Source: Candidatus Ozemobacteraceae bacterium
GTDB lineage: Bacteria > Muiribacteriota > Ozemobacteria > Ozemobacterales > Ozemobacteraceae
Assembly: GCA_965140445.1 (NCBI GenBank)
Contig: OZ223236.1
Coordinates: forward strand, 3,586,498-3,650,497
Direction of reading: 5' to 3'
Length of the DNA: 64,000 bases
In this document: piece after piece, positions 7,427 to 36,761 of the stretch
Numbering within the stretch: position 1 is the stretch's first letter
How the letters are laid out: each line of letters starts with the position of its first letter
Program-made: the position numbers and the translations under genes
Notes under the pieces: model-generated
Told to the model about the DNA's origin: nothing
The model's database searches: none
Seen by the model: only the letters and a program-made list of their open reading frames with translations

Positions 7427-9379
7427 ATGTCATCCAACAAGACTTACTACATCACCACCCCCCTCTATTATGCTAATGACGAGTTGCATATAGGACACGC
7501 ATTCACAACATTGGCCGCAGACATAGCTAGCCGTTTCCAAAGATCAATGGGAAATGACGTGTTTTTCTTAACAGGTTCTGATGAACACGGGCAAAAAGTT
7601 GAACAGGCTGCAAAGAAAAGAGGCATTACTCCAATCCAGCATACCGATGAACTCGTTGCCAAATTTGAAAATCTTTGGGAAAAGCTCAACATCACCCATG
7701 ATGATTTCATTAGAACAACTCAGGATAGACATAAAGACGTTGTAATTCATATTTTAAACAAGCTTTACGAAAAAGGTGACATTTATTCATCTAACTACAG
7801 TGGCTGGTATTGCACACCATGTGAAAGATTTTGGACGGAAAAAGAAGTTCCAGAGAAAATTTGCCCTGATTGCTCAAGAGAAGTTCAGCAGATTGAAGAA
7901 AAAAGCTACTTCTTTAAAATGTCCGCCTATCAGGAAAAACTGATTGATTACATTAATAATACGCCCGGTTTTATCCGACCTGAAAACAGAAAAAATGAAG
8001 TGTTGGGCTTTTTAAAACAGCCTTTAAACGATCTTTGCATTTCCAGACCAAAATCCAGACTTGAATGGGGCATAGAACTCCCATTTGATAAAGATTTCGT
8101 CACTTATGTCTGGTTTGATGCTCTTACGAACTACATTTCAGCAGCCGGCTACAATTCTGATGCTGATAAATTTAAAAATCTCTGGCCAGCAAACTGCCAG
8201 ATCATTGGAAAAGACATTTTAACTACCCATGCAGTTTATTGGACAACAATGCTCATGGCTCTTGACCTTCCACTCCCGAAAACCATCTTTGCTCATGGCT
8301 GGTGGGTTTCAGCTGGCGGAAAAATGTCTAAATCAGTTGGAAACGTTATAAGTCCACTTGAACTTGTGGACAAATATGGACTTGATCCATTTAGATTTTA
8401 TCTTTTCCGTGAAATGGTTTTTGGCATGGATGCCAGCTTTACTGAAGAAAATTTTATCTTCAGATACAATGCTGATCTTGCTAATGACTACGGAAACCTT
8501 TGCCAAAGAACCCTGCCTTTGCTATTGAAAAATCGGGAAGGAAAATTCCATAAGGCCGCTCCCCAATTGATTCAATCAAAAGAAATCGTTCAAATGGCTG
8601 CGGAAGTGAAAAAAGATTACATTGAAGCAATGGAAAATTTCCTTTTCCACGAAGCACTGAAACGAATCTGGGATCTAATCCAGCGCTTAAATAAATATGT
8701 TGATGAAACAGCTCCATGGGCGCTTGCTAAAGCCCAGGAGTTCGATAAGCTTGATGAAGTTTTCTACACCATAGGTGAAGGAATCCGATTTTGCTCACAT
8801 CTTGTAGAGCCGTTTATGCCTGGACTTGCTCCTAAGTTTTTTGAACAAATTGGCTGGACCAAGGGCTTCATAAAACTTCCAGAACTTGAATGGGGTCAGT
8901 TAGAAGAAGGAACTGTATGTATTCAACCGACACCTTTGTTTCCAAGATTAGAAACAAAGCGCATTCAGGAGCTGAAATCCGGCAAGAAATCAACTGATAA
9001 AGCAGCTGAAAAGGCTGCTGCCAAACCTGCTAAAACTCCGGAAAACACAGAAGGAATTATCTCTTTCGATGATTTCCTTAAAACGGAACTTTGTGTTGCA
9101 AGAATTGAAACTGCTGAGAAGCATGAAAATGCAGATAAATTGTTGAAGCTTACTGTTTCAATTGGCGAAGAAACAAGAAGTCTCGTGGCTGGGATTGCAG
9201 ATTATTATTCACCAGAAGAGCTTATCGGGAAACAGGTAGTAATGGTTAAAAACCTGAAACCAGCCAAGATAAGAGGAACAGTTTCCCAGGGAATGATCCT
9301 GGCGGCGCAAACTGAGGACGGTGGATTGGCACTTGTAACTCCTGACAAACCAGCCAAAGTGGGAATAAAAGTCAAATAA
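7427..9379 (+). CDS. metG: Methionyl-tRNA synthetase with C-terminal tRNA-binding (EMAP/Trbp111-like) domain
   Basis: HIGH motif (ELHIGHAFT), KMSKS, the CPDC...CxxC zinc knuckle, and a C-terminal OB-fold tRNA-binding tail. Confidence 0.95.
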   Translation: MSSNKTYYITTPLYYANDELHIGHAFTTLAADIASRFQRSMGNDVFFLTGSDEHGQKVEQAAKKRGITPIQHTDELVAKFENLWEKLNITHDDFIRTTQDRHKDVVIHILNKLYEKGDIYSSNYSGWYCTPCERFWTEKEVPEKICPDCSREVQQIEEKSYFFKMSAYQEKLIDYINNTPGFIRPENRKNEVLGFLKQPLNDLCISRPKSRLEWGIELPFDKDFVTYVWFDALTNYISAAGYNSDADKFKNLWPANCQIIGKDILTTHAVYWTTMLMALDLPLPKTIFAHGWWVSAGGKMSKSVGNVISPLELVDKYGLDPFRFYLFREMVFGMDASFTEENFIFRYNADLANDYGNLCQRTLPLLLKNREGKFHKAAPQLIQSKEIVQMAAEVKKDYIEAMENFLFHEALKRIWDLIQRLNKYVDETAPWALAKAQEFDKLDEVFYTIGEGIRFCSHLVEPFMPGLAPKFFEQIGWTKGFIKLPELEWGQLEEGTVCIQPTPLFPRLETKRIQELKSGKKSTDKAAEKAAAKPAKTPENTEGIISFDDFLKTELCVARIETAEKHENADKLLKLTVSIGEETRSLVAGIADYYSPEELIGKQVVMVKNLKPAKIRGTVSQGMILAAQTEDGGLALVTPDKPAKVGIKVK

Positions 9380-27948: not shown

Positions 27949-28401
27949 ATGAGTTTACCGGGAAAAATAATTGAAGTAAACAGCAACCTTGCTATAGTAG
28001 AAGTCAGTCCAAAACCAGAATGTACAGGGTGCCATGCATGTCAGGGTCTATTAGGTGGAGAAAAAAAGTCTTCACTAAAAAGAATTGAAGCCTTTATTGA
28101 TGATGTCGTTCCAGAGCCAGGAGACGAAGTGATTCTTGATACCAAACCAGGTGAAGGAAGCATCGCCGCACTTTTAGTCTTTGGTCTGCCAATGCTATTT
28201 TTCTTCGTGGGACTATTTCTAGGTCCTCAAGTTTCTCTTTATCTGGGCTTTTCTGCTTCAGATTCAACCAGATTAATAACGGGCTTTATTTTCATGGCGA
28301 TTTCATTTGCCATCCTGGCAGGGGTTTCTAAAACAAAATTTGCCAGAAGTATAAGCCTAAAGGTTACTAAAATAACCAAAAGTGCCAAAGAAAGTAGATA
28401 A
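27949..28401 (+). CDS. rseC: RseC/MucC-family (SoxR-reducing-system-associated) membrane protein
   Basis: N-terminal cysteine cluster CTGCHAC followed by two TM helices. Located immediately downstream of the rnf operon, as is common. Confidence 0.65.
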   Translation: MSLPGKIIEVNSNLAIVEVSPKPECTGCHACQGLLGGEKKSSLKRIEAFIDDVVPEPGDEVILDTKPGEGSIAALLVFGLPMLFFFVGLFLGPQVSLYLGFSASDSTRLITGFIFMAISFAILAGVSKTKFARSISLKVTKITKSAKESR

Positions 28402-28703
28402 AAAAAATCCCTGGATCAAAAAGCCAGGGAAAAAGTGAGAGGATCTTTTGAGAGGATACTTGAGTCATCTGGGGAGATGACATAAGATATTAAAAAGTGT
28501 TCTCCGAATCATAAAATAATTTCTTGATTAATCATGGGACAAACTTCAGTGATTTTTGCTGTGATTGTAGTTTATCTAAGGCTTTAACTATATTTTGAGT
28601 GTTTCTTTTAAAAAAATTTATAAGTTCGTTAGTATTTGCTTTATAACAGTATTTTCATACATTAACGATCCGGAAAACACATTTTTACTTTTTCAAAGAG
28701 CTA
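28402..28703 (-). ncRNA. Candidate sigma-54-dependent small RNA, paralog 1 (about 300 nt), bounded by a -24/-12 promoter and an intrinsic terminator
   Basis: Minus-strand promoter TTGGCATCGAAATTGCT (GG-N10-GC). Conserved 5' block, a variable core, a conserved 3' hairpin (gucauc-N6-gaugac) and the AUCCUCUCAAAAGAUCCUCUCAC motif. Terminator hairpin tccctgg/ccaggga followed by a U8 run. No ORF of 60 aa or more. Confidence 0.5.
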
Positions 28704-28714
28704 TTTATATTAGA

Positions 28715-28729
28715 GCAATTTCGATGCCA
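28715..28729 (-). promoter_or_regulatory. Sigma-54 (-24/-12) promoter of sRNA paralog 1
   Basis: Reverse complement reads TGGCATCGAAATTGC with a GG-N10-GC spacing. Confidence 0.55.
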
Positions 28730-28870
28730 ACTTTTCATTTTTATAAATTGATCTCCAAACCATTATAAAAAGTGATAAACTCGCAATTTTCGCCAATTTG
28801 AACTTATTATACGAATGTGCACTTTTTTTTATGGTGGATTTTAGCACACACATAAGCTTCTAATTTGACA

Positions 28871-29178
28871 AAAAAAATCCCCGGTCAAAAAGCCGGGGAC
28901 AAAGTGAGAGGATCTTTTGAGAGGATACTTGAGTCATCTGGGGAGATGACATAAGATATTAAAAAGTGCTTTCCGAACCATGTTATAAATTTTGGTGCGT
29001 TTGTTATTGTGAATAATTTGTAGCTTTTTCGTATATATTAGGTTGTTTTAGAGGATGTATTCGGTTATTTCGATTCAATAGTTATTCTGTGAATTTTGCT
29101 TTTTCGTTTATTTTGACCCAGCACTGTTAATACTGCAAACGATCCGGAAAACACATTTTTACTTTTTTCAAAGAGCTA
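28871..29178 (-). ncRNA. Candidate sigma-54-dependent small RNA, paralog 2 (about 300 nt)
   Basis: Minus-strand promoter TTGGCACGACAATTGCG, a near-perfect sigma-54 consensus. Shares the conserved 5' and 3' blocks of copy 1. Terminator hairpin tccccgg/ccgggga followed by a U-run. Confidence 0.5.
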
Positions 29179-29189
29179 CCCCTACATAC

Positions 29190-29204
29190 GCAATTGTCGT
29201 GCCA
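29190..29204 (-). promoter_or_regulatory. Sigma-54 (-24/-12) promoter of sRNA paralog 2
   Basis: Reverse complement reads TGGCACGACAATTGC, matching the consensus TGGCACG-N4-TTGC. Confidence 0.65.
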
Positions 29205-29363
29205 ACAAAATTCCTTTTCTGTTTTTGTGATGTTTTCTGCTTACAAGCCTTGTGTAGAGACGTTTCACCTGGAAACAAACAAAATAGTATGTGCTTTTTT
29301 TTACAATGTTGTATTTTCACACCCACACTTGGAAACACCTATAAATTTATAACTTACAAATCA

Positions 29364-29676
29364 AAAAAAAATCCCCGGTTTAAAAAAAGCCGGGGACAAA
29401 GTGAGAGGATCTTTTGAGAGGATTCGGGAGTCATCTCCTGAGAGATGACCAATTTATGAAAAGAGCTTTCCGGATCATGCTGTAATTTCTTCTTAACTTA
29501 TACTGTTACTTATTGTGAGGGGAGGATCGACCATACTATAGTTAGGAGAGGATGTTAAGCTATGAGCAGTAAGTCTATTGTAAGAGTATCAAATACTGTG
29601 AATAATAATGTGAACCAGTAACAACTTATACTGTAAACGACCCGGAAAACTACTTTTTACTATTTTCAAAGAGCTA
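29364..29676 (-). ncRNA. Candidate sigma-54-dependent small RNA, paralog 3 (about 310 nt)
   Basis: Minus-strand promoter CTGGCATAGGAATTGCA (GG-N10-GC). Shares the conserved 5' and 3' blocks. Terminator hairpin tccccgg/ccgggga with a longer loop, followed by a U9 run. Confidence 0.5.
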
Positions 29677-29687
29677 CTTAACTATAT

Positions 29688-29702
29688 GCAATTCCTATGC
29701 CA
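29688..29702 (-). promoter_or_regulatory. Sigma-54 (-24/-12) promoter of sRNA paralog 3
   Basis: Reverse complement reads TGGCATAGGAATTGC with a GG-N10-GC spacing. Confidence 0.55.
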
Positions 29703-29943
29703 GCTTTTTTTTATCATTTTTAGCTAATTTTAGGGCATTTCCTTTGTTAACTTTTTTCACCAGTGTTTTTTTTTCACACTCAAAAACAAGCTTCCACACC
29801 CCTATTTCAACACGACATGCATTTTTTGTCAACTACTTTAGGTTTTTTAAAAGTTCTACTTTGTTCTTTTTTTCACGTTCTCCGACGTGTGTGTTTTTTT
29901 TTCACCTTTATATTTTTTCCCCATTAGGCTATATTGCATTCAA

Positions 29944-31866
29944 ATGAAAAAGATAATCCTTTCCGCAATCAACTCAAAGCACACTCACGCTTGTCTGTCG
30001 CTGGCAACTTTAAAAGCTTATCTTGAAAAAAACACATCAGATTTAACCGCATCAATTTTTGAATTTGATTTAAACCAAAACATTGATTCCATTTTTGCTG
30101 AGCTGGTGAGAATCAAGCCTGATTTTTTAGCCTTTTCTACCTACATATGGTCCTTTGAGACCATAATAGAAATTTCTGGCGCTATTAAGTCAGCCTTTCC
30201 ACAGATGAAAATTTGCCTAGGAGGGCCCGAAGTAACATTTCAAGCCGAATCCATTTTGCAAAGATTTCCATGGATTGATTTCATAATAAGAGGCGAAGGA
30301 GAAGAAACCTTTACCGAATTGCTTCTGAGCAATTTTGAGCTTGATGATCTCCTGAAAATAGATGGTTTAAGCTTTCAAAATAATTCTAAAATATACAGCA
30401 ATAATGACAGGAAACTTATTGAAAACCTGGACGTAATACCCTCCCCTTTTGAGCTTGGCATCTATAAAAACGGGAAAGGTTACACATATTACGAAGCATC
30501 AAGGGGTTGCCCCTCTAAATGTTCCTATTGCTTAAGTTCCGTATTGGGCAAGTTGCGCAATTTTTCCATTAATAGAGTTAAAAAGGATTTGGATTGGTTT
30601 TTCAATTCGGACTATGAGCAAATAAGGTTTTCTGATAGAACTTTTAATTTTGATAAAAATAGAGCGAAAAAAATTCTTAATTACATTCTTCAAAATAACG
30701 TTCAAAAAAAGAACTTCCATTTTGAAATTCAAGCAGACATTCTGGATGAAGAAATAGTCGAACTTCTAGCAAGTGAACCGCATGGGATTTTCCATTTAGA
30801 GATTGGAATTCAAAGCTTAAACCTGAAAGCCCTTGCCGCTGTAAATAGAGCTTGCAACCCTCAAAAGCTTGAAAAAATGATTATTTTCCTTAGGGATCAC
30901 ACTAGATGTCATCTTCACCTGGATTTGCTGGGCGGTCTCCCGGAAGATACCTACCTCCAATTCAGGGAAAGTTTTAACAAGGTTTGGAATTTTAAACCTA
31001 ACTGTATTCAGGTTAGTTTAATTAAAGTGCTTCGCGGAACCCCTTTTGAAAATGAAGTAAAAACCAACAGGGTTTCCTGCATGCCAACCCCTCCTTATAC
31101 TCTCACCAGGACTCTTTGGATGTCCCCTGAGGAACTCATTAGGATTCAGGAAATTGGAAAGCTTGTAGAATCAATTCGAAACTCGGAGAGATTTACAATT
31201 TCATTGCACTACATAACTGAAAATATTTATCAAAATAATGCGATTGAATTCTTCGAAGATCTTCTTGATTATTGGTTAAAAATGTCTTTTCTTAATTTTG
31301 GAATGAATCCTCGAACCATTAAAGAGCGCCTTGTGAGCTTTTTAATCCATAAGTTTCCTGAGCATCCAAAAACTAAGGAACTGGAAACCCTTTTTGACCA
31401 TGAGCTTCAAATGAGCCTGCGATCGCCTTCAACAGAATTTTCTTCTTCCCCAGATTTCCCGGACTCCAAAATGAAGGATTATCCATTCAAAGTTCTTCCT
31501 TCATTAAAAGTAATCTGGCAAAAGCACAATATCGAAAGTCTAATCTCAGACCAGGATAAAAATATTAAGGGAAATTACTTTCCGACCTTGTATTTCTTTG
31601 AAAAAAATCCTGCCTTAAAAAACAAAACTGTGCATTTAGAGCTCCCCTTAATTGAAAAATTCACAATCAGCTCTGTTCTTAAAAAACTTTCAACCGATCA
31701 AATGGCTCGGATGTGCCTCCAACTCTACGATTGGGAAATTCTTCCAGACCATTTTGAAAAGGTGCTTGAAAACCTTTGTCAAAGAGGATTAATATATAAT
31801 CTCAATGTAAAAAGCTTTGATGAAATTAAGGACTATATTCCTGAAGAAATCCAAACACAAAGGTGA
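29944..31866 (+). CDS. B12-binding domain-containing radical SAM protein (DUF4080 C-terminal extension)
   Basis: N-terminal cobalamin-binding-like domain and a radical SAM CxxxCxxC motif (GCPSKCSYC). True start is the ATG at 29944 (MKKIILSAIN); the track ORF starts earlier, at 29887. Confidence 0.8.
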   Translation: MKKIILSAINSKHTHACLSLATLKAYLEKNTSDLTASIFEFDLNQNIDSIFAELVRIKPDFLAFSTYIWSFETIIEISGAIKSAFPQMKICLGGPEVTFQAESILQRFPWIDFIIRGEGEETFTELLLSNFELDDLLKIDGLSFQNNSKIYSNNDRKLIENLDVIPSPFELGIYKNGKGYTYYEASRGCPSKCSYCLSSVLGKLRNFSINRVKKDLDWFFNSDYEQIRFSDRTFNFDKNRAKKILNYILQNNVQKKNFHFEIQADILDEEIVELLASEPHGIFHLEIGIQSLNLKALAAVNRACNPQKLEKMIIFLRDHTRCHLHLDLLGGLPEDTYLQFRESFNKVWNFKPNCIQVSLIKVLRGTPFENEVKTNRVSCMPTPPYTLTRTLWMSPEELIRIQEIGKLVESIRNSERFTISLHYITENIYQNNAIEFFEDLLDYWLKMSFLNFGMNPRTIKERLVSFLIHKFPEHPKTKELETLFDHELQMSLRSPSTEFSSSPDFPDSKMKDYPFKVLPSLKVIWQKHNIESLISDQDKNIKGNYFPTLYFFEKNPALKNKTVHLELPLIEKFTISSVLKKLSTDQMARMCLQLYDWEILPDHFEKVLENLCQRGLIYNLNVKSFDEIKDYIPEEIQTQR

Positions 31867-36584: not shown

Positions 36585-36761
36585 GTTTCACACTCCATAA
36601 GTTGGGACAATTCTTTTACATAATTAAAGCAATTTCTTTGCCACACCAAAAACCCTTTACCAAGAACGTTCTTAAGGTTTTGTTTAAAATTTTTGCTTAA
36701 TTTTTAACAATGATTGTAGTAATTTTTGGCATTAGATTGAAGTTGTGCTATAATCCCTTTC

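Follow-up and report, generated by a model that had tools for sequence, protein, structure and literature searches.

The GTG...CAC motifs that lie upstream of three sigma-54-type promoters in a 64,000-nucleotide stretch of DNA from a Candidatus Ozemobacteraceae bacterium (contig OZ223236.1, positions 3,586,498 to 3,650,497; hereafter the window) are likely upstream activating sequences, to which a DNA-binding bacterial enhancer-binding protein (bEBP) of the NtrC class would bind. The motifs and promoters lie in a 1.5-kb non-coding gap (28402-29943) that is made up of three units in tandem, at spacings of 469 and 497 bp and all on the minus strand, each of which appears to encode a small RNA (sRNA) of about 300 nt. 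A sequence-only reading of the window had flagged 50 bases of this gap, at 28800-28850. Across related loci the motif is a 17-bp dyad with the consensus TGTGyGAAAAnnrCACA, that is, TGTG-N9-CACA with a fixed 9-nt spacer and an A/T-rich centre. The long T runs that are so conspicuous in the window are the 9-nt spacer of this dyad, filled with A and T in an AT-rich genome. To our knowledge the phylum, Riflebacteria, has no cultured representative, and this enhancer motif has not been described before.

The evidence for this reading comes mainly from other members of the same sRNA family. A search with the invariant 3' motif of the sRNA against one genome per species returned 62 genome loci, 58 of them with the full motif and a terminator, and a metagenome scan added 15 further sRNA loci (related loci are designated here by the prefix L). 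Nearly every related locus has the dyad upstream of its sRNA promoter, mostly as two abutting copies, such as TGTGTGAAAAGCACACA-A-TGTGCGAAAAGCGCACA in L016, TGTGTGAAAAAAACACA-G-GTGAAAAAAACACAC in L002, and the perfect 35-bp palindrome TGTGCGATTTTCGCACA-A-TGTGCGAAAATCGCACA in the GC-richer genome of L018. We described the site with a 17-column matrix built without the window sites, in which G2, T3, G4, C14, A15 and C16 are the most constrained columns (frequencies of 0.91-0.98) and the centre is rich in A. Distances of sites are measured from the T of TGGC in the promoter, unless they are given from the predicted transcription start. A site of at least 14 bits was present between -140 and -30 at 38 of 54 unique sRNA promoters, and 21 of these had two such sites, compared to a control rate of 0.006 per equivalent stretch in approximately 1 Mb of locus sequence. 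The promoters that were counted had also served to refine the matrix, so that the fold-enrichment is optimistic and to that extent weighs against us; the contrast is still very large. Much of the residue in the control consisted of reverse readings of the same palindromes, or of distal modules. When 900 nt of upstream sequence were examined, at least one site was found at every promoter with enough sequence available, and the dyad was absent from nine matches to the promoter pattern that were not followed by the sRNA box (best score 6.7 bits). The proposal of dimer-type sites for a regulator encoded elsewhere is thus supported, in that the dyad recurs upstream of orthologous and paralogous sRNA promoters in dozens of genomes.

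The position of the dyad is as consistent as its sequence. Measured from the T of TGGC, the centres of the sites fall into clusters at 51/68, 59/77, 63/80 and 65/82 bp upstream, or about 77-108 bp upstream of the predicted start, with a pair spacing of 17-18 bp. The intergenic DNA of these loci is otherwise unalignable, and its composition upstream of the promoters ranges from AT-rich to GC-rich; the conservation of the dyad against this background, together with its location in the usual range of enhancers, typically 80-150 bp upstream, supports its interpretation as an enhancer. In many loci of the long sRNA class (see below) there is a further site or pair 126-131 bp beyond the proximal pair, and distal sites in L001, L006, L009, L012, L055, L058, L078 and L079 are at the same relative position as in the window. 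Loci of the short sRNA class do not adjoin the radical SAM gene that borders the window gap, and they have the same pair at 59/77 bp. Since both size classes carry the dyad at different loci, the common denominator is the sRNA promoter and not the neighboring gene.

Within the window, unit 3 has the strongest sites. Its proximal enhancer pair (29745..29778, minus strand) has its centres at -68 and -51 from the T of TGGC, or at about -94 and -77 from the predicted start, and consists of TGTGAAAAAAAAACACT (29778-29762; 19.2 bits) and GGTGAAAAAAGTTAACA (29761-29745; 11.3 bits), the latter being a GTG...TTAAC variant. This layout, including the variant second site, matches L001, L006, L033, L055 and L072. 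The distal module of unit 3 (29861..29906, minus strand), 128 bp upstream of the proximal pair, contains GGTGAAAAAAAAACACA (29906-29890; 18.7 bits) and a weak neighbor, CGTGAAAAAAAGAACAA (29877-29861; 8.4 bits with the first matrix). The sites of 19.2 and 18.7 bits are the two best of approximately 128,000 window positions on both strands, the best score anywhere in the 64 kb outside the gap is 10.2 bits, and the top-scoring positions of the window are all upstream of the three sRNA promoters. The divergent radical SAM gene has its ATG (29944) at a distance of 38 bp from the distal module, and we observed a distal dyad 33-38 bp upstream of the start codon of this gene in the window (29890-29906), L078, L079 and L014; the same regulator may occlude the radical SAM promoter by way of this dyad.

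The upstream motif of unit 2 (29289..29328, minus strand) is weaker, with one site, GGTGTGAAAATACAACA (29323-29307), at 12.1 bits, one of the five best scores among 128,000 positions of the window, and a second, TTGTAAAAAAAAGCACA (29306-29290), in which the right half-site alone is intact and which scores below 3 bits. The flagged motif of unit 1, atgtgcac-T8/9-atggtggatttt-agcacacac (28815..28852, minus strand), is a degenerate dyad pair. Its site A, TGTGCTAAAATCCACCA (28848-28832; centre at about -137 from the predicted start), reaches only 3.4 bits, since its GTG and CAC are separated by 8 or 10 nt where the dyad has 9, and site B, TAAAAAAAAGTGCACAT (28831-28815; centre at about -120), keeps only GCACA. 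All of the motif sequences that had been quoted for copies 1, 2 and 3, and for a fourth instance, are present where they had been placed, apart from one detail: copy 3, given as cagtg-T10-cacactc, reads cagtg-T9-cacac at 29762-29781, and has T9 and not T10. The second instance at copy 3, gtgtgtg-T9-cacc, is at 29887-29908. The motifs do lie upstream, on the minus strand, of the three matches to TGGCAY-N5-TTGC, while their distance from these had been put at 65-100 bp and is in fact 86-123 bp for copy 1, 85-124 bp for copy 2, and 43-79 and 188-204 bp for copy 3. That the motif exceeds chance holds for copy 3 and for copy 2; it does not hold for copy 1, nor for bare GTG-N9-CAC, which occurs 6 times in the window where 4.8 occurrences are expected and so shows no enrichment.

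The conserved upstream dyad is thus clear at copy 3, weakly present at copy 2, and not detectable with the matrix at copy 1, which is recognizable only as the positional homolog of copy 2 and is not significant alone. Copy 3 is the canonical full module, copy 2 a version with one moderate site, and copy 1 a decayed one. It is conceivable that copy 1 (28815-28852) is a non-functional relic of tandem duplication, and that gene 1 is driven from stronger sites upstream or poorly expressed. The low score, the altered half-site spacing and the loss of all but GCACA in the second site fit with such decay, as does the occurrence of family members whose dyads are 333-745 bp away with nothing closer. 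In L078, the nearest available relative, which has two tandem sRNAs in the same gap, the sites of the second gene are at different distances (156 and 235 bp). On the other side, the copy 1 block is the best-conserved stretch between the otherwise diverged upstream regions of units 1 and 2, a local island with 10-12 identities per 15 columns, and in known enhancers a weak site beside a strong one is often occupied cooperatively. Copy 1 is also unchanged in the same-species contig L080, which is too similar to the window to be informative. Altogether, we lean against the relic explanation for copy 1, while giving it a substantial chance. Because the strong sites are found only at gene 3, genes 1 and 2 are expected to respond more weakly, or to depend on the strong sites 0.5-1 kb upstream of them. 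They may depend on the enhancer of unit 3, since dyads hundreds of bp away are compatible with promoters of this family.

Such long distances were observed in two clades. In L029, L053, L064, L070, L072, L073 and L076, a two-module dyad array is located 610-745 bp upstream of the promoter (in L072, the array is at 8150-8314 and the promoter at 8903), and in L057, L067, L074 and L077 a two-module arrangement is 333-463 bp upstream. bEBPs act from distances of 610-745 bp and classical activators do not, so that the range in the first clade further supports the enhancer reading. In the L072 clade, the insert of approximately 550 bp that separates the dyads from the promoter was considered as a decayed sRNA copy, which was rejected for lack of similarity, and inspection of this insert by eye revealed no sigma-54 promoter.

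Several observations weigh against the dyads being enhancers of the sRNA genes. Copy 1 fails the matrix and copy 2 has just one moderate site. The sense strand of the sRNA is, in almost all cases, also the A-rich strand of the spacer, which a symmetric dimer site does not explain. Abutting dyads are 17-18 bp apart from centre to centre, which is no integral number of helical turns and places adjacent dimers on different faces of the helix; the strong sites of NtrC are about three helical turns apart, whereas the dyads of this family abut. No activator gene was found in the window or in approximately 80 related loci, and neither the window nor L001-L062 has an RpoN box. Finally, the dyads of long-class loci also adjoin the divergent radical SAM gene, and in one clade they are nearer to that gene (about 200-370 bp) than to the sRNA promoter (610-745 bp).

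The last of these points bears on an alternative in which the dyads are operators for another regulator, such as a CRP/FNR-like protein, a repressor or a nucleoid protein, acting on the sRNA promoters or on the radical SAM gene, while the sigma-54 activator works without a DNA site or from an unrecognized one. Some bEBPs do lack a DNA-binding domain, the TGTG and CACA half-sites resemble the TGTGA/TCACA half-sites of CRP, the distal dyad is close to the start codon of the radical SAM gene in the window, L078, L079 and L014, and in one clade the dyads are closer to that gene than to the sRNA promoter. However, the spacer between TGTG and CACA is fixed at 9 nt compared to 8 for CRP, no other conserved element is found upstream of the promoters in the consensus, and loci of the short class, which do not adjoin the radical SAM gene, have the same pair at 59/77 bp. 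Position and pairing are typical of enhancers. We therefore regard an operator of this kind as improbable. A CRP/FNR-type operator proper (TGTGA-N6-TCACA) was tried as a candidate and rejected, the spacing being off by one base. Terminators or RNA hairpins were likewise rejected as an identity for the dyads, which have stems of 4-6 bp without a following T run and lie between divergent genes. No protein-coding target was found among the high-scoring dyads away from sRNA promoters in the loci; these were reverse-strand readings, distal modules, or isolated sites within coding sequence (e.g., L014 at 7002).

The DNA between the enhancer and the promoter has a regularity of its own. In the spacer between the proximal enhancer and promoter 3 (29703..29744, minus strand), A tracts occur about every 10.5 bp, and across 58 non-redundant promoters the tract occupancy, defined as the probability for a position to be part of a run of at least three A or T, peaks at -6, -17, -27.5, -38 and about -51 from the T of TGGC, with values of 0.5-0.7 at the peaks and 0.05-0.2 in the troughs, and a period of 10.5 bp. 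Helically phased A tracts curve DNA, and intrinsic curvature can replace integration host factor (IHF) at sigma-54 promoters. The phasing of the tracts at 10.5 bp therefore suggests an intrinsic bend that takes the place of IHF and would aid looping; a search by eye, limited to unit 1, revealed no convincing IHF consensus.

Since phased A/T tracts run on to the promoter, one could postulate that the motifs themselves are purely structural, that is, A/T tracts that curve or stiffen the DNA, with meaningless GTG/CAC flanks and no protein that reads them. Their centres are indeed A4-A9 runs whose A-rich strand is consistently the sense strand, and bare GTG-N9-CAC is no more frequent in the window than expected. 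Against this, the six flanking positions listed above are more constrained than the A tract, and GC-richer genomes keep a perfect palindromic module with an A/T core of only 4 nt. The 17-bp length is also kept while the length of the A run varies: the distal run is A7 in L080 and A9 in the window, and a CACACA repeat in L080 keeps the TGTG-N9-CACA register available. A purely structural role is, in our judgment, very improbable.

We can postulate the following mechanism for enhancer function of the dyads. Activator dimers bound at the dyads would assemble on paired or multiple sites into an active AAA+ oligomer; the phased A/T tracts would curve the DNA such that the oligomer touches RNA polymerase-sigma-54 at the TGGCAY-N5-TTGC promoter, and ATP hydrolysis would then open the promoter. 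The products would be sRNAs of about 300 nt that base-pair with ribosome-binding sites.

As to the activator itself, the sequence-only reading had stated that none is encoded in the window, and this stands. Neither the GAFTGA, GESGTGK and ESELFGH signatures nor an RpoN box was found in six frames of the window, a tblastn search with an NtrC central domain gave no hit with E below 0.79, whether in the window or in the related loci, and no Sigma54_activat domain was found in the 20 window open reading frames (ORFs) scanned against Pfam, including all of activator-like length. A GSFSGA match in L021 was considered as an activator and rejected, as it has no accompanying Walker A motif. The absence of an activator gene from the window and the related loci implies that the regulator would be unlinked to its sRNA targets. 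The presence of rpoN is suggested only by the promoter, which is conserved throughout the phylum and keeps a fixed distance from the conserved 5' end of the RNA.

The promoters themselves have the -24 GG and -12 GC elements with the exact spacing of sigma-54 promoters (TGGCAC-N5-TTGC). They are TGGCATCGAAATTGC for sRNA 1 (28715..28729, predicted start near 28703), TGGCACGACAATTGC for sRNA 2 (29190..29204, start near 29178) and TGGCATAGGAATTGC for sRNA 3 (29688..29702, start near 29676), all on the minus strand. The pattern TGGCAY-N5-TTGC occurs three times in the 64 kb, each time in the gap, compared to an expected 0.35, and three occurrences were reached in none of 100 shuffles. TGGCAC-N5-TTGC is present in about 53 of 58 true loci, 125-390 nt upstream of the sRNA 3' motif and at a fixed distance from the 5' box of the sRNA, which also follows each of the three window promoters at the predicted start. 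We observed a fourth sigma-54-like match, TGGCAAAGAAATTGC (36629-36643, minus strand), 45 nt upstream of the ATG of a 612-aa ORF without a Pfam hit; the TGTG-N9-CACA dyad was not found near it, and a perfect 12-bp palindrome, AAGAACGTTCTT, lies just upstream.

Each unit begins with the TGGCAY-N5-TTGC promoter and, about 12 nt past its GC, a conserved box, AGCTCTTTGAAAA...GTTTTCCGGRTCG. This is followed by about 170 variable nt, then by a conserved 3' domain, CATGRTYCGGARARC...GTCATC-loop-GATGAC...ATCCTCTCAAAAGATCCTCTCAC, and finally by a GC hairpin and T8-9. The combination of promoter, 5' box, 3' domain and terminator in each unit leads us to predict three sRNA genes of about 300 nt with sigma-54-type promoters, all on the minus strand: gene 1 at 28400..28703 (about 304 nt), with the 5' box AGCTCTTTGAAAA, a closing helix, a C-rich hairpin, two copies of AUCCUCUCA (28459-28435) and the terminator; gene 2 at 28870..29178 (about 309 nt); and gene 3 at 29354..29676 (about 323 nt), which has extra AUCCUC motifs in its apical region and folds into a closing helix, a hairpin, a single-stranded CCUCUC region and a terminator. 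The T8 tail of the sRNA 1 terminator (28400-28407) and the stop codon of the RseC gene, which is convergent, overlap, and the hairpin may terminate both transcripts.

Comparison among members of the family demonstrates the reality of the structured RNA. In 42 non-redundant members, pairing in the hairpin that precedes the CCUCUC motifs reaches 96%, compared to 12-43% when the partner is shifted, with compensatory exchanges (AT/GC/GT/CG and TA/CG), and the closing helix between the 5' and 3' ends covaries, for example as CCGGAUC/GAUCCGG, CCGGGCC/GGCCCGG, CUGAAC/GUUCAG and UCUAUAUA/UAUAUUAGA. Throughout the family, two invariant AUCCUCUCA motifs lie in a single-stranded stretch ahead of the terminator, the hairpin loop is C-rich, and often one to three further AUCCUC motifs are found apically. 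GGAG, GAGG or AGGA ribosome-binding sites are present at about half of the window genes. The CU-rich motifs of the RNA and these purine-rich sites make pairing with translation-initiation regions likely, and the two to five AUCCUCUC motifs per sRNA of about 300 nt would thus probably pair with ribosome-binding sites.

The family has not been described before and has no Rfam entry. A scan of the window with Rfam 15 gave zero hits at the gathering threshold, the same scan of ten related loci returned only tRNA, and a search at E values up to 10 gave only sub-threshold matches of the CU-rich 3' end. Two size classes, of about 215 nt and about 300 nt, were found, with two or more loci per genome. 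Additional sigma-54 promoters with dyads of 18-23 bits and the sRNA 5' box were observed in L031 (near 1750), L042 (near 3897) and L063 (near 3020); these were missed by the exact 3' motif, so that the pattern search underestimates the size of the family. The named loci are mostly from metagenome-assembled genomes (MAGs) of Candidatus Riflebacteria, Rifleibacteriota or Ozemobacteraceae. Others are labelled Candidatus Avigastranaerophilus (L007, L049), Erysipelotrichia (L033, L040) or Methylomirabilis (L045, L058), and at least L049 and L058 also have neighboring genes of the Riflebacteria type, which suggests mis-binning or mislabelling and not a wider distribution.

The gap is flanked by a gene of the RseC/MucC family (27949-28401, plus strand; stop codon at 28399-28401) and by a gene for a B12-binding radical SAM/DUF4080 protein (29944-31866, plus strand; ATG at 29944), which is divergent from the sRNAs. 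The order PlsY - orf189 - RseC - sRNA(s) - DUF4080 radical SAM - zinc ribbon is conserved phylum-wide for the long class. The nearest relatives were obtained through homologs of the radical SAM neighbor and not through the metagenome scan: the window protein is 99% identical to that of one ENA contig, and 45-51% identical to its other best homologs, some of which are labelled Rifleibacteriota, which places the window in a Riflebacteria lineage. The metagenome scan, which was aimed at loci closer to units 1 and 2, did not reveal an AT-rich triple array, and mostly returned the clade with far-upstream dyads. In L078 (4381-5400) and L079 (1-190), a hairpin-like element of about 45 nt, CAACACATGCG...GGCCGAGAGTCGTGTTG, occurs two to four times after each sRNA terminator; it is absent from the window.

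The arrangement described here resembles several known systems. The 17-bp dyad-symmetric sites, multiple strong and weak, upstream of a sigma-54 promoter recall those of NtrC at glnAp2, which act at a distance and can overlap and repress a neighboring promoter; the half-site there is TGCACC, and is TGTGyG here. LuxO of the Qrr system binds TTGCA-N3-TGCAA, and qrr1 adjoins luxO, whereas the dyad here is TGTG-N9-CACA and no activator gene is located beside the window sRNAs. The likeness to Qrr1-5 lies in redundant sRNA genes that encode terminator-ended base-pairing RNAs, each gene having a separate sigma-54 promoter with activator sites at a distance of roughly 100 bp upstream, where LuxO has two high-affinity cooperative sites (PMC11407668). 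The RNAs themselves differ, as those of the window family are about 300 nt long with a long variable stem and occur three in tandem; they show no sequence similarity to Qrr, and no Rfam hit to the Qrr family was obtained even at E values up to 10. CrcZ and CrcY of Pseudomonas are sRNAs that likewise depend on sigma-54; their activator CbrB has several subsites spaced about 20-25 bp apart, an IHF bend element lies between these and the promoter, and CbrB controls protein-coding targets as well (PMC6296734). In contrast to the dyads, CbrB subsites are non-palindromic, crcZ adjoins cbrB, and CrcZ titrates Hfq/Crc via A-rich motifs, while the window RNA has CCUCUC motifs and the bend is apparently intrinsic, from the phased tracts. 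A further similarity concerns the sRNA product and not the flagged DNA motif: the sole Rfam similarities, confined to the 3' domain and scoring 20-28 bits compared to gathering thresholds of 41-50, are to anti-Shine-Dalgarno sRNAs (the mmgR/suhB family, the Betaproteobacteria toxic sRNA and ncS025), which share CU-rich motifs ahead of the terminator and are unrelated in promoter type and 5' domain. Functionally, the design is of the Qrr/LuxO, CrcZ/CbrB or GlmY/GlrR type, and a member of none of these, since there is no Rfam match, the site sequence and the RNA are different, and the regulator is unlinked.

No paper was found that links Riflebacteria with sigma-54 sRNAs, nor any experimental study of regulation in Riflebacteria. 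A wider conjecture, which we offer as speculative and unlikely to hold in every part, is a phylum-wide Qrr-like regulon in which one sigma-54 activator reads the TGTG-N9-CACA enhancer and drives multi-copy sRNAs whose GAUCCUCUCA motifs, resembling the 3' end of 16S rRNA, would compete for Shine-Dalgarno sequences and throttle translation, with the enhancer shared by tandem genes over 0.5-1 kb and doubling as an operator of the DUF4080 radical SAM gene. The system described here would be the fourth clear case of sRNAs under the control of sigma-54 and an enhancer, after Qrr, CrcZ/Y and GlmY, and it occurs in a distant lineage. It provides a testable module for the phylum, consisting of a defined enhancer sequence, a sigma-54 promoter and a structured sRNA family. 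The dyad makes the activator and its regulon directly searchable, and could be used as bait for the former and to delimit the latter in MAGs.

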